Origin: Bacillus subtilis subsp. subtilis str. 168
GTDB lineage: Bacteria; Bacillota; Bacilli; Bacillales; Bacillaceae
DNA length: 32,000 nucleotides
Direction: 5' to 3'
NCBI RefSeq assembly: GCF_000009045.1
Contig: NC_000964.3
Span: 810,001-842,000, forward strand
Under the pieces are notes generated by a model that searched no databases, was not told the DNA's origin, and saw only the letters and a program-made list of their open reading frames with translations. The position numbers were made by a program, and so were the translations under genes. Below, one piece after another: positions 5,999-15,715 of this stretch. Every line of letters begins with the position of its first letter. Positions within the stretch are counted from its first letter, which is position 1.

Positions 5999-6027
5999 AT
6001 TATAAAGGAGGATTCGGAATGTTGAAA
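5999..6027 (-). promoter_or_regulatory. Putative sigma-A promoter of yfmM
   Basis: On the minus strand there is a perfect TATAAT (5999-6004) and a weak -35 TTTCAA (6022-6027) with a 17-nt spacer. A T-rich tract lies upstream. Confidence 0.4.
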
Positions 6028-6102
6028 GGTATAGGAAAGAAAAAGAAAAATTGCGTTCCGGGCGAGGTTTTGAGATACTATGGAATAGATTTCAGGAATT
6101 GA
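6019..6102 (+). CDS. Candidate 27-aa upstream ORF (MLKGIGKKKKNCVPGEVLRYYGIDFRN) preceding yfmL
   Basis: Perfect SD AAGGAGGA (6005-6012) lies 6 nt before the ATG at 6019. The TGA at 6100-6102 overlaps the yfmL SD (GAGGAG 6101-6106). It is too short for the ORF track. Confidence 0.35.
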   Translation: MLKGIGKKKKNCVPGEVLRYYGIDFRN

Positions 6103-6112
6103 GGAGAACAAA

Positions 6113-7243
6113 ATGACGCAAACTTGGCCATTTTTACATAATGCACAATCATTTATACAAGAGAATTGGAATGCTTCCGGCTTTCAAAAGCCAACCCCTG
6201 TTCAGGAGCAGGCAGCCCAGCTGATCATGGACGGAAAGGATGTCATTGCAGAATCGCCGACAGGCACAGGGAAGACGCTGGCGTATGCGCTGCCGGTCTT
6301 GGAGCGGATCAAACCAGAGCAAAAGCATCCGCAGGCGGTGATTTTAGCGCCTTCCCGTGAGCTGGTCATGCAGATTTTTCAGGTGATTCAGGATTGGAAA
6401 GCGGGCTCAGAGCTGCGCGCGGCTTCCTTAATCGGCGGGGCGAATGTGAAGAAACAGGTCGAAAAGCTGAAGAAACATCCGCATATCATCGTCGGCACGC
6501 CAGGCAGGGTGTTTGAACTGATTAAAGCGAAGAAACTCAAAATGCATGAAGTGAAAACGATCGTGCTTGATGAAACGGATCAGCTCGTCCTGCCGGAGCA
6601 TCGCGAAACGATGAAGCAAATCATTAAAACAACATTAAGAGACCGCCAGCTTCTATGTTTTTCTGCCACGCTCAAAAAGGAAACAGAGGACGTGCTCCGC
6701 GAATTGGCGCAAGAGCCTGAGGTGTTGAAGGTGCAGCGAAGCAAGGCGGAGGCAGGGAAAGTGAAGCATCAATACCTGATTTGCGACCAGCGCGACAAAG
6801 TGAAGCTGCTGCAAAAGCTGTCAAGGCTTGAAGGCATGCAGGCACTCGTATTTGTGAGAGACATTGGCAACCTGAGTGTATATGCGGAAAAACTGGCATA
6901 TCACCACGTTGAACTCGGCGTTTTGCACAGTGAAGCGAAAAAAATGGAGCGAGCGAAAATCATTGCCACATTCGAAGACGGAGAGTTTCCTCTTTTATTG
7001 GCGACTGACATTGCCGCACGCGGTTTAGATATTGAAAACCTGCCATACGTGATTCATGCTGATATTCCAGATGAAGATGGCTATGTCCACAGATCAGGAC
7101 GAACAGGCCGGGCCGGAAAAGAAGGCAACGTGCTGAGCCTTGTGACAAAATTGGAGGAATCTAAGCTGAAAAAAATGGCGAAGAAGCTTGGTGTTGAGCT
7201 GAGTGAAGCTGTGTATGCAGGCGGAAAACTGAAGACGAAATAA
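6113..7243 (+). CDS. yfmL: DEAD-box ATP-dependent RNA helicase
   Basis: Q-motif GFQKPTPVQ, motif I SPTGTGKT, motif II DETD (a DEAD variant), SAT, and HRSGRTGRAG. SD gaggag. Confidence 0.92.
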   Translation: MTQTWPFLHNAQSFIQENWNASGFQKPTPVQEQAAQLIMDGKDVIAESPTGTGKTLAYALPVLERIKPEQKHPQAVILAPSRELVMQIFQVIQDWKAGSELRAASLIGGANVKKQVEKLKKHPHIIVGTPGRVFELIKAKKLKMHEVKTIVLDETDQLVLPEHRETMKQIIKTTLRDRQLLCFSATLKKETEDVLRELAQEPEVLKVQRSKAEAGKVKHQYLICDQRDKVKLLQKLSRLEGMQALVFVRDIGNLSVYAEKLAYHHVELGVLHSEAKKMERAKIIATFEDGEFPLLLATDIAARGLDIENLPYVIHADIPDEDGYVHRSGRTGRAGKEGNVLSLVTKLEESKLKKMAKKLGVELSEAVYAGGKLKTK

Positions 7244-7809: not shown

Positions 7810-8829
7810 TCAGCTCGGATCACTGACCTTGATCAGCTGTTTCCCTTTATTTTCTCCCTTAAATAAACCGAGAAACGCGTCAGGAATGTTTTCGAAGCCT
7901 TCTGTGATGGTTTCCTCGTAATGGAGTTTACCAGCCTTCAGCCATTCTGCCAGCTGTTTTGCTCCCTCAGAAAAACGATCGGAGTAGTCGCTTACGATAA
8001 AGCCTTGCATCAGCGACTTCGTTTTAATGAGTTTTGATTGGACACGAGGGCCCATGTCATCTGCTTCGCTTTCTGCGTTATAGGAAGAAATGGCGCCGCA
8101 CACCGGAATGCGGGCAAATTCATTGAGCAGATTCATCACCGCGTCTGAAATCGGTCCGCCGACATTGTCAAAATACACATCGACACCGTCAGGACAAGCG
8201 TTTTGAAGCGCTTTTTGGATATCATCCGCTGTTTTGTAATTGATGGCTTCGTCAAACTGAAGCTCCTGTTTTAAATAGTCGATTTTTTCATCAGAGCCCG
8301 CGATGCCGACGACTCGCGCGCCTTTGATTTTGGCAATTTGCCCGACTGTTGAACCGACGGCTCCGGCAGCTCCTGAGACAACCACGGTTTCGCCTTCCTT
8401 CGGGCGTCCGATGTCCAGCAATCCGAAGTATGCTGTTAAGCCGGTCATTCCCAAAATGCCGAGATAGGCCGAAGCGGGAGCAAGGCTTGTATCAATTTTT
8501 CGCAAGGCAGACTCGCTCACAGCGGAAAATTCCTGCCAGCTGAGATTTCCGATGACGATATCGCCTTTTTTCAGATGATTCCCGTCTGACACAACTTCAG
8601 CGATAACCCCTCCAGAAAGCGCTTTATCCAAGGCGAACGGCTCAACATATGACTTCGTATCCTGCATACGGCCGCGCATATAAGGGTCAACCGATACATA
8701 AAGCGTTTTGACAAGCACTTCCCCTTGCTTGGGTTCAGGAACCGGAATGGTTTCAAAGCGAAAGTCTTCATGAACAGGAATACCTTGTGGACGTCTTGCT
8801 AATTGAATTTGCTGCTGAGATGCTGTCAT
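7810..8829 (-). CDS. yfmJ: NADP-dependent medium-chain oxidoreductase (alkenal/one reductase family)
   Basis: Rossmann motif VSGAAGAVGS. The start is at MTASQQQ, with GGAGG 6 nt upstream, giving 339 aa. Confidence 0.88.
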   Translation of the reverse strand: MTASQQQIQLARRPQGIPVHEDFRFETIPVPEPKQGEVLVKTLYVSVDPYMRGRMQDTKSYVEPFALDKALSGGVIAEVVSDGNHLKKGDIVIGNLSWQEFSAVSESALRKIDTSLAPASAYLGILGMTGLTAYFGLLDIGRPKEGETVVVSGAAGAVGSTVGQIAKIKGARVVGIAGSDEKIDYLKQELQFDEAINYKTADDIQKALQNACPDGVDVYFDNVGGPISDAVMNLLNEFARIPVCGAISSYNAESEADDMGPRVQSKLIKTKSLMQGFIVSDYSDRFSEGAKQLAEWLKAGKLHYEETITEGFENIPDAFLGLFKGENKGKQLIKVSDPS

Positions 8830-8994
8830 TTTCATCCTCCTATCACTTGGTTGACACCACTGTAACATGGACAGGAGAGGAAATACAAAAGGTAAGCTGG
8901 CATACAAAAAAGGTTATAGATGAGCTTATGCTTTCTACAAGCTCTTTTGTTTTAAAAGTTCTCTTTAGTCATTTATCATTATTAGAAAACAGAA

Positions 8995-9241
8995 CAGAAA
9001 AAGAGCTCCTGTACACCTAGCTAAGATTGGCTAGTGTGTATGTCGATTCTTTTTCATATTCTTGCAAGCATCTGCGAGGGGGAGCTTAGTCGTTCACATT
9101 TTGCTTTCGCATCAATCTGCAATAGCAAAGTCTATGCGATTTTTTTACATCAGCAAAGATTTGTTCAATTTTTTCCTTTTATGCCGAGTTTTTCTGAAAC
9201 AGATAATTGATGGTACTCAACCATTTTCTTTTGGTCAATAA
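8995..9241 (+). repeat. Left copy of the degenerate direct repeat flanking the island
   Basis: Colinear shared blocks with the right copy: cagaaaaagagc (8995-9006), tagcta, ttagt..cattt, ctgcaatagcaaag (9117-9130) and ttggtcaataa (9231-9241). Confidence 0.55.
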
Positions 9242-9310
9242 AGTAATGTTTACTTATTAATTAAACACGCGAAAAAGCAAACGAAAACATAATTAAATTT
9301 TATATATTTA

Positions 9311-10531
9311 TTAAAAGCTTATATGTTTATTTACCTTTTTTTTGAATTGTAATTGAGAAAATCCATATATTGCGGACACTAATAAAAGAATACCTGCTGA
9401 AACATAAACTAAACGAACTCCAAGGAAATCTGAAATAGCCCCTATAGCCAGAATTGAAAACATAAAAATGAACTGTACTAAAGAAGACCTTGCAGACATT
9501 ATATTAATTCGAGTTTGCTCGGTTGTTATGTTCTGAATAAGTGTTTCTTGTGTAAGATCTCTTAATATATAAGCCGGCCCCATAAAGAGAACCAAAATTA
9601 GAGCTAAGTATGAATTACTTATAAAACCATATATTAAAGTTAAACTTCCATATGAGACAGCGCCAATTAACATAAAATTAATTAACTTATTTTGAAATCT
9701 CTCCGACAGCTTATATATTATAAATCCCCCTATCATCGAACCTAAATAATATGCTCCATTAATAAATCCCCACCATGATTCTCCTTTATGCAAGACTTCG
9801 TTAACGAAAGCTAAAGAGACAGATCCTATCCAAATCATTCCTGCCCATGACTCAATTAAATCCATAATAATAATTGTTCTAAGTTTCTTTTGGCTAAATA
9901 AATACCGCCAACCACTTACTATACTCTTATTGGGAGAATTTTTTTCACGTATGACAGAATTAGCGTGGCCATGTGGTAGACAAAATAAAAGAGAAAGAAG
10001 AGATGTAAACAACAAAAAGATAGTAAGTATAATGGTATATCCCTCACCTAAAAATGCAATTATGAGACCACCTAAAGACCAGCCTACAAATTGAAAAGTT
10101 TGGTCCACTGTAGATAATAATCCATTTGCTTTTACTCTTCTATCAGGAGAGATTATTTCCCCTATAATTGCACTTTTTAAAGGTGAGAACCATCCATTAA
10201 AAAAGGAAATACAGCTAATAATAATAAAGACTAAAATGAGAGTTTGATTAGAGTAAGTTCTTAATAAAGCATAGAACAAACATATTAATAACAGCATTTG
10301 TATCAATTGAGAAATAATTATTGTAAGAGGCAGTTTTAATCGAATTGTTATTAACGGTAATATAGCACTTCCAAAAATACGAAAAATAATACTTATTAAT
10401 GTCACCATAGAGGCGATGGTTGTCGAATTGGTCATTTTAAACAAAAACGAAATCACTACCATAGTATATAGAGAAAAACCTAAATTTGTAGTGGTCTGGC
10501 TAAATAAAATAGAATAATAACCTTTACTCAT
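9311..10531 (-). CDS. yfmI: MFS transporter (12 TM, exporter-like)
   Basis: 406-aa very hydrophobic ORF with SD gggagga 6 nt upstream. About 28% G+C. Confidence 0.88.
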   Translation of the reverse strand: MSKGYYSILFSQTTTNLGFSLYTMVVISFLFKMTNSTTIASMVTLISIIFRIFGSAILPLITIRLKLPLTIIISQLIQMLLLICLFYALLRTYSNQTLILVFIIISCISFFNGWFSPLKSAIIGEIISPDRRVKANGLLSTVDQTFQFVGWSLGGLIIAFLGEGYTIILTIFLLFTSLLSLLFCLPHGHANSVIREKNSPNKSIVSGWRYLFSQKKLRTIIIMDLIESWAGMIWIGSVSLAFVNEVLHKGESWWGFINGAYYLGSMIGGFIIYKLSERFQNKLINFMLIGAVSYGSLTLIYGFISNSYLALILVLFMGPAYILRDLTQETLIQNITTEQTRINIMSARSSLVQFIFMFSILAIGAISDFLGVRLVYVSAGILLLVSAIYGFSQLQFKKKVNKHISF

Positions 10532-10570
10532 ATGTATCCTCCCTTGGAATAATTTTTCTCGGTAAAGAGC

Positions 10571-10597
10571 TTAAACATATTTAAACACCTTAAAACA
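10571..10597 (+). repeat. Three helically phased direct repeats TTAAACA / TTAAACA / TTAAAACA in the divergent promoter region
   Basis: Copies at 10571-10577, 10581-10587 and 10590-10597, spaced about 10 bp, between the yfmI and peptide-gene starts. Confidence 0.4.
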
Positions 10598-10620
10598 ACA
10601 AAAGTAAAGAAAAAATTTCC

Positions 10621-10649
10621 TTGTAAACTATTTACTTTTATTCTATTTA
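10621..10649 (+). promoter_or_regulatory. Putative sigma-A promoter for the peptide-yfmG transcript
   Basis: TTGTAA, a 17-nt spacer, then TATTTA. This is weak evidence because the region is very AT-rich. Confidence 0.3.
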
Positions 10650-10728
10650 TTGTTATTGTTTATTTAAGTTCTCTGACTATTCTATCAATATTCAGGGAAC
10701 CACATATCTTATTAAAGGGGGGAAAACC

Positions 10729-10800
10729 ATGAGAAAATTAAGAAAAAACTGGAGAAAATCGATTGTTAGCCCGGTTCTTTATACTAATGAAAAATGGTAA
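10729..10800 (+). CDS. yfmH: 23-aa cationic peptide MRKLRKNWRKSIVSPVLYTNEKW (candidate precursor or leader peptide)
   Basis: SD AAAGGGGGG (10714-10722) lies 6 nt before the ATG, and the stop is TAA at 10798-10800. It is the only SD-preceded ORF I found between yfmI and yfmG, so I infer by position that it is the locus named yfmH. Confidence 0.6.
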   Translation: MRKLRKNWRKSIVSPVLYTNEKW

Positions 10801-10808
10801 ACACTTAG

Positions 10809-10838
10809 GGAATAGCATTTAATGCTATTCCTTATTTC
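10809..10838 (+). terminator. Perfect hairpin (attenuator or leaky terminator) between the peptide ORF and yfmG
   Basis: GGAATAGCATT-t-AATGCTATTCC (10809-10831) followed by ttatttc. It starts 9 nt after the peptide stop codon. Confidence 0.55.
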
Positions 10839-10866
10839 AACAAACAAATCGGGAGGTTATCGTAAT

Positions 10867-12330
10867 TTGACTCTATTAATGCAAGATCATAAATCAATTT
10901 ACAATAAAGATATAGAAATATTAATTGAAGTTGAAGAACTTATTACTTCTGTTCCAGAAAATAAAAAAAATGATTTTAAGAGTTTAATCGATAATAGAAT
11001 TATGACTCTACTAAATAAAATTCAACACCCTGTAGCAGCGGAAAATGTGTTTGGGATGTGTATTGCTTATCCGAATACTTACATAAGGTATAGATTAATT
11101 GATTTCGTTGAAAAATGGGTACCTTATTTCTCTGCTGTAGAAACTATAATCAATCTAACCCAGGATCCGGATGATTTAGTTTCTTTTAAAGCTATGGATG
11201 TCTGTGCAAATCATAAAATTGAAGAATCTGTAGCATATTTGTCTTCGATTATTGATGATGTCCGGGAGAGTATAAGCTACCCTAAAAAACCTGTGGGATT
11301 AGGGGCCCAAAAAGTATTAAGTACATTATTAGATATATTCGGTGTTGAAAAACATGAAGAGCTAGTAATGCTAAAAAATTATTTTGATCAAAATGGTATA
11401 CTTCCTAATAACTTTGACTTTGAAGAAAAAATTCCTCAAAGTCTAATAGAGGAATTCGAAAAAACAGAAGAAGATGGGATGATTTTAATTCCGGGTGGCT
11501 TTTTTGAATTCGGTTTAAATGAAAATGAAATTCCTGACAAAACATTTAATTGGAAAGATGCTGTTCCTAGACAAAAAGTATGGTTACCTCCATTTTTTAT
11601 CGATAAGTATCCTGTTACAAATAAAGATTATGATATCTTTACCGAGTTCATAGAGGAAAATGGGCATATATTCTGTCATCCTAATGAACCGCAGAATAAA
11701 CAACATAGAAGAAATACATATTGGGATGATAGGTATTTAGATAATCATCCCGTTACAGGTATAGATTTTTATGATGCATTTGCTTACGCAAGATATAAGG
11801 GGAAAGAATTGCCAACCGAGTTTCAATGGGAAAAAGCTGCTCGAGGCGAAAAGGGTAATGTCTGGCCTTGGGGAGATAAATTTGATCCTGCAAAGGTTCA
11901 ATATGCTGGAAGTCTTTATAATGAACCCATTACTTCTTTAAAGTCCTGGAGAGAAAATTTATTAAAAGCTCATGCTGATAAAGAATTAAATCATTTAACA
12001 AGTGATATTTTTGAACAAAATGGTGAAAGTCCCTATGGAGTATGCGGTATGATCGGCGGAACATGGGAGTGGACTAGAAGTGAGCTTAAAACAAAGAGAG
12101 CTTTCCACCCTATTTTTGAGAATGTACCATTTAATAGTGTTAACTCATTTGCCGTTCTTAAAGGAGGATCATTCTTCTCTCATCCAGGCTTAATGTTCCC
12201 TTCTTTTAGAGCAAAAGATATTCCTTTCTGTCGACACAATGAAATGGGGATTAGATGCGTAAAGAATATTCCAGTATATAAAATTAGAGAATCAATTAAT
12301 GGGCCAATTACTAATAAAGCAATTTATTAA
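10867..12330 (+). CDS. yfmG: Cytoplasmic protein with N-terminal HEAT-like repeats and a C-terminal FGE-sulfatase (SUMF1/EgtB/PvdO) fold domain
   Basis: The C-terminal half has family motifs: ILIPGGFFEFG, FFIDKYPVTNKDY, HPVTGIDFYDAFAYARYKGKELPTEFQWEKAARG, GGTWEWT, LKGGSF and MGIRCV. I chose the TTG at 10867, 10 nt after GGGAGG. The alternatives are the ATG at 10822, which lies inside the hairpin, and the ATG at 10879. No signal peptide. Confidence 0.85.
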   Translation: MTLLMQDHKSIYNKDIEILIEVEELITSVPENKKNDFKSLIDNRIMTLLNKIQHPVAAENVFGMCIAYPNTYIRYRLIDFVEKWVPYFSAVETIINLTQDPDDLVSFKAMDVCANHKIEESVAYLSSIIDDVRESISYPKKPVGLGAQKVLSTLLDIFGVEKHEELVMLKNYFDQNGILPNNFDFEEKIPQSLIEEFEKTEEDGMILIPGGFFEFGLNENEIPDKTFNWKDAVPRQKVWLPPFFIDKYPVTNKDYDIFTEFIEENGHIFCHPNEPQNKQHRRNTYWDDRYLDNHPVTGIDFYDAFAYARYKGKELPTEFQWEKAARGEKGNVWPWGDKFDPAKVQYAGSLYNEPITSLKSWRENLLKAHADKELNHLTSDIFEQNGESPYGVCGMIGGTWEWTRSELKTKRAFHPIFENVPFNSVNSFAVLKGGSFFSHPGLMFPSFRAKDIPFCRHNEMGIRCVKNIPVYKIRESINGPITNKAIY

Positions 12331-12386
12331 TCATTCTAGGTTAGAGACTTGATAAAAGTATACTAACATTGTGTAGTAATGTTCAG

Positions 12387-12427
12387 CTTGTAGAAAAAAC
12401 AATGTTTTTTCTACAAGATTTTATTTT
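12387..12427 (+). terminator. Terminator after yfmG
   Basis: 15-nt arms CTTGTAGAAAAAACA / TGTTTTTTCTACAAG followed by attttatttt. Confidence 0.75.
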
Positions 12428-12460
12428 AAATGCTTTTCAAAATTATCAGGGATTGAGAAT

Positions 12461-12744
12461 CAGAAAAAGAGCCATTAAGCTCGATCTTAGCTAGGTATTA
12501 CGATCTTCTGTATATTATTGTGAGAAATATAGAAGATTCAGTTAGTTAGCATTTCGATTTTAAGCTGAGCCTGCAATAGCAAAGCATCTGTTTTGATTAT
12601 TCTTTTTCTGATACATAAGCTAATTTTGTCGCTTTTCTTTTTTGTCTTTTCACGCATTTCGAGGATGACTTACTATAATTCTTTCAGCTTTTCTATGTGT
12701 TAAGATTCGAATAGATGAAATAACTTTAACAAGTTGGTCAATAA
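12461..12744 (+). repeat. Right copy of the degenerate direct repeat flanking the island
   Basis: The same ordered blocks as the left copy: cagaaaaagagc (12461-12472), ctgcaatagcaaag (12571-12584) and ttggtcaataa (12734-12744). Confidence 0.55.
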
Positions 12745-12850
12745 GAACAGATTTAACTTTATGTTAAAAGAGTATCTCGTATAGAACATAAGAAGAATGA
12801 CGAGTTTTTTAAGATTATCATCAATTATGTGAGAATAAAATATTATAAGG

Positions 12851-12882
12851 GAAAATGAAGGCTGTCACGTTTCTCGACAGCC
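12851..12882 (-). terminator. Terminator after yfmF (end of the yfmCDEF operon)
   Basis: Stem ggctgtc / gacagcc. On the minus strand it is followed by ttcatttt. Confidence 0.65.
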
Positions 12883-12902
12883 CTAGGGAATTCCTCTCCT
12901 TT

Positions 12903-13703
12903 TCATTTCGCCCGTAATTTCGGGCACAGTCCCGTCGGCAGGCACATTGGCTTCTGGTCGATCGGGCTTCTCATGATGCAGCATTCCAAGCCGAAGACTT
13001 CACGGAAAAATGGCTGGGTGAACACATCTTCCGGTGTTCCGGCGTTGTATATTTTTCCGTCCAGCACACTGATCAGATAGTCAGCATATTGAGCGGCTTG
13101 GTTTAAATCATGGAGCACCATGACAACGGTGCGGCCATGGTCGCGGTTCAGCTTTTTCAGCAGTTCAAGCACTTCAATCTGATGTGAGATGTCTAAATAC
13201 GTGGTCGGCTCATCAAGCAAAAGCAAATCAGTGCCTTGCGCAAGTGCCATGGAAATCCAGGCTCTTTGTCTTTGGCCGCCTGAGAGGGCATCAAGTGTCC
13301 GATCCTTCAGTTCAATCATGCCCGTTGCTTCCAGCGCCCACTCTACCATGTCATGATCCTCTTGGGTATGCTTGGATAACAGCTTTTTGTGAGGATGTCT
13401 GCCAAAATAGCATAATTCCTCTACCGTCAATCCTTCAGGAGCCTGAGGAGATTGTGGAAGAATGGCCAGTTTTTTTGCGACTTCTTTTGATGGCTGGCGG
13501 TGGATGTCTTTTCCTTCTAGTAGCACTGTACCGCTTTTTGGGGCCATCAGCCTGGCGAGCGATTTGAGGATTGTTGATTTACCGCAGCCATTAGCGCCGA
13601 TGAGCGCAGTGATTTTTCCTTCTTCTATCTTTAAGTCGACTCCGTCAATAATCACTGTACTGTCATATGAAAGAGTGAGCTGGTCTGCAGCCAGTTTTCC
13701 CAT
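12903..13703 (-). CDS. yfmF: Iron-citrate (siderophore-type) ABC transporter, ATP-binding protein
   Basis: Walker [10 protein letters not shown], signature LSGGQRQR, Walker B LLLLDEP. FecE/FhuC-like. Confidence 0.92.
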
Positions 13704-13715
13704 GGTATCCTCTCC

Positions 13716-14717
13716 CTACTGTTTCCTCGCTTCGAATTTCAATAAATATAAGAAATAAGGCGCGCCGATCACGGCTGTCAGTATTCCGGCAGGTATTTCA
13801 ACCGGAGGCATGATGCCGCGCCCTAACGTATCTGCAATTAATAATATAATAGCACCAATCAATGCCGATGCAGGCAGTAAATATTTAGCTTTTTCTCCGG
13901 TAAGCCGTCTGGCGATATGCGGAGCAAGCAAGCCGATAAAACCGATTGAGCCGACGACGGCTACACAGCTTCCCGCCAGCGCCACCGCGGTGAAAATCAG
14001 GATGAATCTCAGCCGGTTTGCGTTTTCTCCGAGACCCTGTGCAAGCTCATCCCCGAGTGACATAAGATCCAGCTTCGGTATGAGTATGCAGACGATCGGA
14101 AAAAGAATCAAAAGCCATGGCGCAAGCAGCTTGACTTCTTCCCAGTTTCTTCCCCAGAGGCTTCCTGTCAGCCAAATGAGTGCAGCATTCACGTCGCCTG
14201 GAAACTTGACCATCATATATTGCATTCCGGCGTGGCAGACCGCGCCTAAAGCAATGCCTGATAAAGCCAGTGAAGAGGGCTGAATGCTCTTTTTTCGGGC
14301 TATCATTAATAATAGTACAGCAATAATGGCGGCTCCGGCAAATGCGGAGAACGGAAGCACGTATACCGGCGACTCAGGAAAGATGAGAATCACAGCCATC
14401 GCCGCAAGTCCGGAGCCTTTTGAAATGCCGACAACGTCCGGGGAAGCGAGCGGATTTCGGATCACACCCTGTAAAATCGCTCCGGCAGCGGCAAGTCCAG
14501 CACCTGCCAAAATCGCTAATATAATGCGGGGAAGGCGATATTGCTGGATGATAAATTCAAAGGAATGATCCAGTCCCAGCAGATTCGTCACTACCGCATC
14601 AGGTGAAATGTATAATGCACCGATTCCAATGCTGATGACGGACAGAACGATTAAAATCACGGCCAATATGAGTATCGCCAGTAAGGGGCGTTTTTGTTTT
14701 CTGGTTGTTTTCTTCAT
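13716..14717 (-). CDS. yfmE: Iron-citrate ABC transporter permease (FecCD family)
   Basis: 333-aa hydrophobic ORF with FecCD-type motifs (RNPLASPDVVG, GFIGLLAPHIAR). Confidence 0.92.
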   Translation of the reverse strand: MKKTTRKQKRPLLAILILAVILIVLSVISIGIGALYISPDAVVTNLLGLDHSFEFIIQQYRLPRIILAILAGAGLAAAGAILQGVIRNPLASPDVVGISKGSGLAAMAVILIFPESPVYVLPFSAFAGAAIIAVLLLMIARKKSIQPSSLALSGIALGAVCHAGMQYMMVKFPGDVNAALIWLTGSLWGRNWEEVKLLAPWLLILFPIVCILIPKLDLMSLGDELAQGLGENANRLRFILIFTAVALAGSCVAVVGSIGFIGLLAPHIARRLTGEKAKYLLPASALIGAIILLIADTLGRGIMPPVEIPAGILTAVIGAPYFLYLLKFEARKQ

Positions 14718-15715
14718 TTCAGGTTTCGCCCTTTCCTTGCCAAATATAAGAAAAACGGCGTTCCGATAATCGCGGTGACAATGCCGACCGGTGATTCATA
14801 AGGAAATGCAATCCATCTGGCCAGAACATCTGCGTACACCAGCAAAATGGCACCGAACAGTGCCGAAAACGGAAGCACGTATTGATAATGTTCTCCGATC
14901 AGCTTGCGGACAATATGCGGGACGAGCAGCCCGACAAAGCCAATCGGCCCGGCGACGGCTACGGAAGCGCCGGAAAGAATTAAAATAATCAAACTGATCA
15001 GAATCCTGATGCCGTTCATATTTTGTCCAAGCCCTTTTGCTGTTTCGTCTCCGAGACCGAGAACAGAAACAGAACCGGAAAATACGAGGGCAAGCCCGAT
15101 GCCAATGACAGAAAAAGGAGCGATGGTTATGACGTCCTGCCAGTTGCTGCCGTCGATTGCGCCTGTCATCCAGTACAGAACATCCTCACCTGACTCATTT
15201 AAAATAATGATGGCCTGTGTCATAGAGGAGAGGAACAAGTGCACGGCCATTCCTGACAGCGCCAGCTTGACAGGCGTCATTCCGCCGGATGAGGCAATCA
15301 TATACACAATCGCGCCGCCTGCTGCCGCACCCGCAAAAGCGAATATAACAGATGAATAGGGCGATGCCGGCAGAATGACGAGAGAAGCAACAACAAAAAG
15401 CGATGCACCCGCATTCACACCGAAAATTTGGGGTGAAGCCAGAGGATTTCTGGTCATAGCCTGCATCAGCGCCCCTGCTACAGCTAGGCTGGCGCCGACA
15501 AAAACGCCGATTAATGTGCGGGGAAGGCGAAGAGTAGAGATGATGAGCTGTTCCTTTGAACCGTCCCATACAAAAAGATATTTCAATGAATCTATGATGC
15601 TGATGTCTGAGGCTCCTACTGAAAGATTCAGCCCAAGCCCAAATATAAAAATAATCAGTGCAATGATAAACATCATCAGTCTTGATGATGAGCGCCGTTT
15701 GGCTGAATGATACAA
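14714..15715 (-). CDS. yfmD: Iron-citrate ABC transporter permease (FecCD family)
   Basis: FecCD motifs (RNPLASPQIFG, GFVGLLVPHIVR). The TTG start at 15715 follows AAGGAAGTGA, giving 333 aa. It overlaps the yfmE start by 4 nt. Confidence 0.88.
   Translation of the reverse strand: MYHSAKRRSSSRLMMFIIALIIFIFGLGLNLSVGASDISIIDSLKYLFVWDGSKEQLIISTLRLPRTLIGVFVGASLAVAGALMQAMTRNPLASPQIFGVNAGASLFVVASLVILPASPYSSVIFAFAGAAAGGAIVYMIASSGGMTPVKLALSGMAVHLFLSSMTQAIIILNESGEDVLYWMTGAIDGSNWQDVITIAPFSVIGIGLALVFSGSVSVLGLGDETAKGLGQNMNGIRILISLIILILSGASVAVAGPIGFVGLLVPHIVRKLIGEHYQYVLPFSALFGAILLVYADVLARWIAFPYESPVGIVTAIIGTPFFLYLARKGRNLK

Follow-up and report, generated by a model that had tools for sequence, protein, structure and literature searches.

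Short leader reading frames ending in Lys-Trp and followed by a hairpin accompany YfmG-type genes from Bacillus to Streptomyces

What is the role of a reading frame of 23 codons that lies directly ahead of yfmG, a gene for a protein resembling formylglycine-generating enzyme (FGE)? The locus is part of a 32,000-nt window of the Bacillus subtilis subsp. subtilis str. 168 chromosome (NC_000964.3, positions 810,001 to 842,000; a window coordinate plus 810,000 gives the genome coordinate), and the open reading frame (ORF) in question, yfmH, occupies positions 10729-10800 on the forward strand. A preliminary description made from the sequence had offered three roles for its product, namely a leader-plus-core precursor, a membrane-active cationic peptide or a regulatory leader peptide for yfmG. 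We hold with considerable confidence that in B. subtilis yfmH is a cis-acting, translated leader ORF which controls the terminator ahead of yfmG. What is new here is the finding that YfmG-type genes in two phyla, from Bacillus to Streptomyces, come with a short upstream ORF that ends in Lys-Trp and with a hairpin behind it.

The elements of the ORF that had been read from the sequence are all present. The Shine-Dalgarno (SD) sequence AAAGGGGGG (10714-10722) is separated by the 6-nt spacer AAAACC from an ATG codon (10729-10731), and 23 codons are followed by TAA (10798-10800). The product, MRKLRKNWRKSIVSPVLYTNEKW, has Lys or Arg at six of its ten N-terminal residues, Trp at position 8, no Cys and no C/S-x-P-x-R motif, again as described. 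The emphasis that had been placed on the strong SD stands in part. Its duplex with the 3' end of 16S rRNA (-11.6 to -12.2 kcal/mol) is indeed equal to the SDs of real genes in the window, but an SD followed by a short ORF is not significant by itself, because the window has about 60 similarly strong sites, both strands counted, many of them with no gene behind. The yfmH ORF is nevertheless more than a chance reading frame, as it corresponds to an annotated protein, its translation has been published, and its motif was found solely upstream of YfmG-type genes. Under the name hypothetical protein YfmH, the exact 23-residue sequence is deposited in public collections for B. subtilis strains 168, JH642 and BSP1 (AGA22408.1 and others). 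The ORF is thus already annotated and has been characterised experimentally as a leader peptide, so that its existence is no discovery of the present study.

The leader was studied in detail by Ritchey et al. 2020 (RNA 26:1431, PMC7491331), whose experiments establish the regulatory leader role that had been one of the three suggestions. The start site of yfmHG was placed by primer extension 201 nt upstream of the yfmG TTG codon, the promoter was assigned to sigma-A with an extended -10 element, and a NusA-dependent intrinsic terminator was located between yfmH and yfmG, with Term-seq cited. A transcriptional fusion bearing the leader dropped about 8-fold with amino acids; amino acids still lowered expression 5-fold when the leader was placed behind a foreign trp promoter, and the effect shrank to 1.5-fold when the leader was deleted. 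A reporter fusion at codon 23, which the preliminary description had proposed as a check, was already in print: yfmH'-'lacZ joined after that codon is expressed, and an ATG to TAG change abolishes expression. The start-to-stop mutation of yfmH greatly lowered the transcriptional fusion, and the same start-codon mutation reduced a yfmG'-'lacZ fusion 3-fold and removed the amino-acid response of that fusion. Lys plus Arg, Ile/Leu/Val, and all 13 encoded amino acids lowered expression in an additive, progressive manner. The published model invokes three hairpins, an anti-antiterminator overlapping the ORF, an antiterminator and the terminator, with slow translation of yfmH favouring the antiterminator (Ritchey et al. 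2020). The table of a 2022 paper likewise lists an operon yfmH-yfmG, with AbrB, YfmH and sigma-A as regulators.

When these data are placed in window coordinates, transcription of yfmHG starts at 10666 (10867 minus 201), which is also the 5' end of ncr471, a small RNA (sRNA) of 173 nt located between yfmI and yfmG at genome positions 820666-820838 (Irnov 2010). The terminated leader transcript therefore corresponds to ncr471 and spans 10666-10838, with its 3' end at 10838 as evidence for the terminator; the offset between window and genome coordinates also follows from this RNA. Counting back from the published start site, we place a putative sigma-A promoter at 10631-10659, consisting of a -35 element TTTACT (10631-10636), a 17-nt spacer and the extended -10 element TGtTATTGT (10651-10659). 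The terminator (10806-10839), for which the published Term-seq and NusA dependence agree with our folds, has a 13-bp stem (10806-10818/10822-10834) and a UUA loop; it may alternatively be described as a core stem 10808-10818/10822-10831 followed by UUAUUUCA. The hairpin begins 5 nt downstream of the yfmH stop codon, and the 70 nt 3' of that stop fold with a z-score of -5.18. The complete 201-nt leader has a folding energy of -45.2 kcal/mol (z -3.3), and a 5' stem-loop (10668-10700) was found in all leader folds. Behind the terminator lie the yfmG SD GGGAGG (10851-10856), which is also named in the Figure 8 legend of Ritchey et al. 2020, and yfmG itself (10867-12330, forward strand), with a TTG start and 487 aa. 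The mechanically called yfmG ORF and a 502-aa database representative (P0002) begin at an ATG at 10822, inside the 3' arm of the terminator; a 487-aa protein is supported alike by the N-termini of homologues, by the position of the SD (10851-10856) and by the TTG codon (10867), so that some annotations make yfmG 15 codons too long.

Folding of 3'-truncated leaders with RNAfold predicted two further pairings. One is an anti-antiterminator hairpin within the ORF (10743-10780), in which codons N7-W8-R9 would pair with S14-P15-V16; the other is an antiterminator (10764-10817), in which 10764-10772 would pair with the terminator 5' arm 10808-10817. As modelled, both match the verbal description given in the paper. 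The antiterminator duplex has a predicted energy of -8.8 kcal/mol in B. subtilis (z -2.05), and the predicted structure, which gains about 2 kcal/mol, is seen solely in folds that omit the terminator 3' arm. A scan of 10400-11000 for promoter and terminator consensus sequences reported neither the yfmHG promoter nor the yfmH terminator. The scan is blind to both, since the terminator is atypical, its U-tract being interrupted and its action dependent on NusA, and the promoter belongs to the extended -10 class. A search with Rfam covariance models at a permissive threshold returned chance-level matches alone (best E 0.42), and a match to the leu/phe leader family was on the wrong strand, with 18 bits against a gathering score of 70.

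In the mechanism that we favour, transcription begins at 10666, ribosomes load at the strong yfmH SD and translate the 23 codons up to 5 nt before the terminator (10806-10839), and their movement along yfmH would set whether the terminator hairpin forms. If it forms, the 173-nt RNA would be released and yfmG would remain off; if RNA polymerase reads through, yfmG would be transcribed. Read-through is high under amino-acid scarcity and drops about 8-fold once amino acids are provided. It is published that yfmH is translated, that the response depends on the leader and that the start-codon mutation has an effect, while we infer the exact switch between anti-antiterminator, antiterminator and terminator and the codons that are sensed. 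The predicted folds, which give the terminator directly after the stop codon and mutually exclusive pairings upstream of it, are consistent with this mechanism.

Genes related to yfmG are patchily distributed. Full-length YfmG homologues with 49-77% sequence identity occur in Priestia, Anoxybacillus, Siminovitchia, the B. cereus group, Paenibacillus, Thermoactinomycetaceae and Staphylococcaceae, and homologues with about 32% identity are carried by Streptomyces plasmids; a metagenome scan with the YfmG N-domain yielded 4 loci, all of types already found. By reading the DNA upstream of such genes, we found YfmH-like ORFs at 35 loci of the Bacillota and Actinomycetota, representing 24 distinct peptides of 19-29 aa. 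All 35 have an SD of their own and directly precede the YfmG-type gene, in the same orientation. Examples are the peptides from Priestia (MKKMTKNWKKSIVNPVLYTNAKW), from B. wiedmannii and a Bacillus plasmid (MKKNWRKRLSVALPVFSNEKW), from Kroppenstedtia (MKRNWRKGITKPVAFSGAKWG), from Mammaliicoccus (MKTLERDWKESIFEPVLNVSNDKWD) and from Streptomyces (MKTLRQWNALRSQRKGGVRPAGKYFKWAA, MTYGSQWEKAASARSLKKRLPDADKW, MSDRDFIETRDAKQECSKW, MTAEDFLGSREAGEAATKW). A regular expression for the Bacillota-type motif had 27 matches when applied in six frames to 98 sequences (600 kb), each of them ahead of a YfmG-type gene, and it had no match in about 65 loci of distant FGE-domain proteins. A literature search brought up no description of a YfmH family.

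Few residues of these peptides are constant. Trp-8, Lys-22 and Trp-23 are invariant across 16 aligned peptides of the Bacillota type, and 22 of the 24 distinct peptides end in Lys-Trp with 0-2 residues before the stop codon, the remaining two having Lys-x-Trp. In Bacillota the first and last Trp are spaced 15-17 residues apart despite the variable length of the N-terminal part, while some Streptomyces versions have Phe in place of the first Trp and altered spacing. The Lys-Trp ending persists from DNA of 23% GC to DNA of 62% GC, with the Streptomyces leaders at 54-62% GC. There is no codon run for a single amino acid; the two Trp codons are invariant, and stretches rich in Lys, Arg and Asn are conserved. 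The preliminary description had also considered that the ORF might be broken or poorly conserved in relatives that retain yfmG; we find it to be conserved at the protein level. A different 30-codon ORF, MHKVKQARLNVVYVEGMATKWGGDDDPIQP, with a terminator, precedes a YfmG-like gene (33% identity) in Salinicoccus sesuvii (locus L016, 2802-2894), and its internal T-K-W-G resembles the ending of the YfmH family.

Codon usage indicates that selection acts on the amino acids of YfmH and not on its nucleotides. Identities at the three codon positions are 0.54, 0.63 and 0.46, so that third positions are the most variable, and pN/pS is 0.575 in frame compared with 0.88 and 0.80 in the shifted frames. The basic residue that follows Trp-8 is encoded by four codons from different boxes (AGA, AAA, CGC, CGT), and the Ile, Leu or Phe at position 12 by 8 different codons. 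Arg-6 is kept between Macrococcus and Mammaliicoccus through AGA in one and CGT in the other, and in two copies of the Priestia type the ORF differs by 3 synonymous changes and no replacement.

A strong hairpin was found 0-19 nt past the stop codon at all 23 loci tested (0-9 nt at most of them), with a median folding z-score of -5.1 for the 70 nt 3' of the stop and significance at 22 of the 23. Hairpin sequences are unrelated between genera; within the Priestia-type pair the terminator stem carries a compensatory replacement of G:C by A:U, by which the pairing is kept. Among the 18 loci measured first, 6 have the hairpin 13-19 nt behind the stop codon, which is beyond the footprint of a ribosome. 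The stop codons themselves vary among UAA, UAG and UGA. Extra DNA separates the ORF and hairpin from the YfmG-type gene in Siminovitchia thermophila (about 1 kb, L012, 1890-2989) and in two Anoxybacillus loci (about 330 nt, L003 and L004); the 1-kb insert of L012 has no convincing ORF and no Rfam match.

Several points weigh against yfmH acting in the manner set out above. In B. subtilis transcription runs largely uncoupled from translation, a complication for models in which a ribosome tracks the polymerase. The Ile, Leu and Val codons (12, 13, 16 and 17; 10762-10779) overlie the 5' arm of the predicted antiterminator, so that a ribosome stalled on them should disfavour read-through, yet added Ile/Leu/Val lowers read-through 3-fold; CodY or the stringent response, for instance, might bring this about indirectly. 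A generic sensor of 13 amino acids gives no reason why Lys-Trp-stop is kept from 23% to 62% GC. The antiterminator pairing is no better than in shuffled sequences (z about 0) in most orthologues and reaches z of about -2 in B. subtilis, L005 and L008 only. RNA structure within the ORF is also no more stable than in shuffles, and what the Trp-8 codon pairs with varies among orthologues. Finally, a transcriptional fusion with untranslated yfmH kept responding to amino acids (Ritchey et al. 2020).

Two ideas based on RNA pairing were dropped. A conserved pairing of an antiterminator with the 5' arm of the terminator is unsupported outside B. subtilis, L005 and L008. We also considered that peptide conservation might be a by-product of an RNA hairpin, since the Asn-Trp codons (AAY UGG) are complementary to Pro-Val codons (CCN GUN), and rejected this because ORF folds are no better than those of shuffles, the Trp codon has changing partners and several members lack Pro.

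The comparison suggests that what is sensed is specific to the sequence, through the invariant C-terminal Lys-Trp beside the stop codon, rather than generic, because the unit of ORF and terminator is an ancient companion of YfmG-type genes and is conserved at the peptide level. As a refinement of the cis-acting leader, which we offer tentatively, YfmH would be a sequence-specific sensor, either by a Trp hunger codon beside the stop, in the manner of trpL or rtpLP, or by a slowing of the ribosome through the nascent peptide, in the manner of TnaC. The three invariant residues of the Bacillota-type peptides, the Lys before the last Trp in nearly all distinct peptides (22 of 24, those of Streptomyces included), the constrained Trp-to-Trp spacing in Bacillota, the selection on amino acids seen in codon diversity and pN/pS, the hairpin within 9 nt of the stop at most loci and the lack of conserved antiterminator pairings all speak for it. 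They have to be set against the published responses to Lys plus Arg and to Ile/Leu/Val, and not to Trp only, and against the expression of the codon-23 yfmH'-'lacZ fusion, which argues against a strong arrest of elongation ahead of the stop. Neither the use of all three stop codons, which leaves no room for release-factor specificity, nor the replacement of the first Trp by Phe with shifted spacing in some Streptomyces versions is expected of such a sensor, and the same holds for the gap of 13-19 nt at one third of the loci first measured. In either version the geometry would be one of occlusion: a ribosome detained on the final codons or on the stop codon would cover about 10 nt beyond it, and thereby the base of the hairpin, and would block termination with no need for an antiterminator, an arrangement that fits most loci.

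Known systems resemble yfmH in some respects and differ in others. The attenuators of the trpL, hisL, pheL, leuL and ilvL types of E. coli have, like yfmH, a short translated leader ORF followed by an intrinsic terminator; in both, amino-acid supply sets the progress of the ribosome and thus the choice between termination and read-through, and alternative hairpins have been proposed. Unlike these, yfmH encodes 13 different amino acids with no run of codons for one of them, the gene behind it is not one of amino-acid biosynthesis, and a W...K-W-stop peptide is conserved across phyla while the antiterminator is weak and unconserved. Attenuation of the trpL type is also rare in Bacillus, where T-boxes and TRAP are usual. 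In the rtpA-ycbK (anti-TRAP) operon of B. subtilis, worked on by Chen and Yanofsky, Trp codons of the leader rtpLP reportedly sense the charging of tRNA-Trp, and a ribosome at the leader stop codon is said to cover a nearby downstream signal sterically. However, rtpLP has three adjacent Trp codons, blocks translation initiation at the rtpA SD and not a terminator, and shares no sequence similarity with yfmH, for which Trp-specific sensing is a candidate.

Arrest peptides such as TnaC, SecM, MifM and the Erm leaders also resemble YfmH, as they are short leader ORFs with few invariant residues dispersed over the peptide, among them an aromatic one that lies over 10 residues ahead of the C-terminal end, and a downstream signal for transcription or translation depends on where the ribosome stalls. 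This likeness should be taken as an analogy. The codon-23 lacZ fusion of yfmH is expressed, sequence similarity to YfmH is lacking, and TnaC in particular blocks Rho and not an intrinsic terminator and needs free Trp and RF2. The leaders of bmrB-bmrCD, erm, cat and mef/msr in Firmicutes share with yfmH a leader ORF plus terminator or hairpin ahead of an operon; at many YfmG-type loci the operon behind the leader includes a DHA3-type pump of the major facilitator superfamily (MFS), as in efflux attenuators, and yfmG and bmrBCD rise together in a whiA mutant. The known inducers of those leaders are ribosome-targeting drugs, whereas the data on yfmH cover amino-acid supply, and the B. subtilis pump gene yfmI is divergent and does not lie behind the leader.

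A further explanation concerns the enzyme that the leader precedes. YfmG has an FGE-sulfatase C-domain (Pfam 1e-68; FGE-like, SUMF1/EgtB/PvdO) behind a helical, HEAT-like N-domain with a weak HEAT_2 match. In its AlphaFold2 model (pLDDT 82.7), the helical N-domain comprises residues 8-198 and takes the place of the DinB domain of EgtB. The nearest matches in the PDB are CalU17, FGE and EgtB/OvsA, and NCBIfam gives sub-threshold matches to EgtB and SenA. Ser-438 and Met-443 of YfmG align with Cys-336 and Cys-341 of human FGE, and because they replace these copper-binding catalytic cysteines, YfmG is, to judge by the alignment, not a true FGE. The earlier remark that the peptide is no FGE substrate, made because it has neither Cys nor C/S-x-P-x-R, is thereby extended to the enzyme, which has neither catalytic cysteine. 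A His/Cys-rich motif conserved in the family, GHIFCHPNEPxxKxHxRNTYWD (residues 267-287, with H267, C270, H271 and H280), could be a metal site.

It is conceivable, though we consider it unlikely, that YfmH is also or instead a precursor or scaffold: its C-terminal Lys-Trp would be modified by the YfmG-type enzyme, the product would be exported by the MFS protein, and the hairpin would set the ratio of precursor to enzyme transcripts, as it does after pqqA or lantibiotic structural genes. In its fullest form, in which these peptides of 19-29 residues are scaffold substrates of YfmG-type FGE-like enzymes and are perhaps released as a Trp-derived small molecule, the proposal is slightly less probable still. 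A precursor role is compatible with regulation by yfmH, and the published effect of the start-codon mutation could partly be ordinary polarity. The peptide is conserved over two phyla and always stands beside the enzyme, an MFS gene adjoins the YfmG-type gene at most loci examined, and the helical-repeat N-domain of YfmG could, from its model, bind a peptide. A listing of the AbrB regulon places yfmHG beside sbo-alb, epe and other secondary-metabolite operons. The closest NCBIfam match of YfmI is to the ryptide export MFS transporters, a family of exporters of ribosomally made peptides that are modified after translation (RiPPs) (E 1e-49), but its 170 bits are far under the cutoff of 575; the next-best match is to the DHA3 antiporter subfamily.

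The layout of a small peptide with invariant, (near-)C-terminal residues, then a hairpin, then an enzyme gene is shared with PqqA and, more broadly, with MftA and the pearlin/ammosamide scaffolds, whose clusters likewise contain an exporter and tailoring enzymes. Those systems rely on radical-SAM or PEARL enzymes, on RiPP recognition elements (RRE) or PqqD-type domains, and on peptidases, none of which were found for yfmH. Pfam and NCBIfam searches of YfmG and of the genes of the B. subtilis island gave no RRE/PqqD, radical SAM, YcaO, LanB/C/M, PEARL or leader peptidase; Pfam assigns to YfmG the FGE-sulfatase domain alone, apart from the weak HEAT_2 match, and the island has no peptidase. The closest characterised relatives, EgtB, OvsA, FGE and CalU17, act on small molecules or on motifs of folded proteins. 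Literature searches turned up nothing relevant on FGE-like enzymes in RiPP pathways, and no report of a modified YfmH or of a product derived from it. The cis-regulatory role, by comparison, has been demonstrated directly, and intact YfmG-type genes occur with no leader ORF (A. ayderensis L007, L097, L017). In Anoxybacillus ayderensis L007, unrelated sequence with a GC-rich palindrome at its end (412-811) stands in place of the leader ORF and terminator, while the downstream 200 nt and an intact YfmG-type gene are kept, so that this locus is a natural leaderless variant.

Larger neighbourhoods, themselves conserved, surround the leader and YfmG-type gene at two Bacillus loci (L082, L098) and on Streptomyces plasmids (L100-L103). 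They contain genes for a PhyH-family dioxygenase, a second SUMF1/EgtB/PvdO protein, an MFS transporter, two ATP-grasp proteins and an aminotransferase, as well as a HAD hydrolase or MBL and alpha/beta hydrolases, and methyltransferases are present among the larger clusters. From their gene content these neighbourhoods look like an uncharacterised biosynthetic cluster, as the precursor proposal would have it. If YfmH did prove to be a scaffold, it would represent a new class of ribosomal natural product made by an enzyme of the SUMF1/EgtB/PvdO family, from Bacillus to Streptomyces, and the hairpin behind the ORF would be a stoichiometry device in addition to an attenuator.

That the 173-nt ncr471 RNA functions in trans as an sRNA, with the ORF being incidental, is very improbable. 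The RNA accumulates, is catalogued as an sRNA and was modestly enriched with Hfq (3.6-fold), but conservation tracks the reading frame and the amino acids and not the nucleotides, the leaders share no sequence across genera outside the ORF, Irnov et al. list no RNA conservation, no Rfam family matches, and translation of yfmH has been demonstrated. The weakest explanation, that YfmH is a free-standing, membrane-active cationic peptide as had been suggested, has next to nothing in its favour beyond a superficial likeness of the B. subtilis version (net charge +6, two Trp) to Arg/Trp-rich antimicrobial peptides, since net charge in the family varies between -2 and +8, the ten N-terminal residues have a net charge of 0 in Macrococcus and Mammaliicoccus, versions from the Staphylococcaceae and from some Streptomyces are neutral or acidic, with acidic ones in Streptomyces, and there is no signal peptide, hydrophobic segment or immunity gene.

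Around the leader, yfmI (9311-10531, reverse strand; Pfam MFS_1, MFS_3) encodes the divergent MFS transporter that forms part of the conserved module. The MFS gene is divergent in B. subtilis and Priestia, and belongs to the same operon in Mammaliicoccus, Paenibacillus and Streptomyces. Together yfmI, yfmH and yfmG make up a low-GC island (9363-12361) with 28-35% GC compared with about 47% elsewhere. The island is 97-100% identical to the corresponding DNA of B. inaquosorum and B. spizizenii, while the core genes of its flanks (7867-9362 and 12362-15326) are 85-94% identical, which suggests a recent horizontal spread or recombination within the subtilis group. Downstream of yfmG a terminator scan located a hairpin with a 14-bp stem followed by ATTTTATTTT (12387-12417, forward strand). 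Between it and the convergent yfmF terminator (12884-12858) lies a stretch of about 480 bp with no convincing ORFs (12418-12900), which at 85-89% identity to sister species is less conserved than any other part of the region. Elsewhere in the window, a 27-codon ORF, MLKGIGKKKKNCVPGEVLRYYGIDFRN (6019-6102, forward strand), with a strong SD AAAGGAGG 7 nt upstream, ends 10 nt before a gene of 376 aa at 6113; it is a candidate for a second ORF of the leader type.

In the published model, YfmH senses 13 amino acids generically. Our comparative data point instead to a specific readout, because an ORF ending in Lys-Trp and a hairpin are found together across two phyla, the antiterminator is not conserved and the neighbourhoods look biosynthetic. 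Such a readout might take the form of Trp-tRNA charging, of ligand-dependent arrest or of the peptide itself as a substrate. The comparison of YfmH peptides could in this way offer a first handle on the function of a widespread module consisting of an FGE-like enzyme and an MFS transporter.

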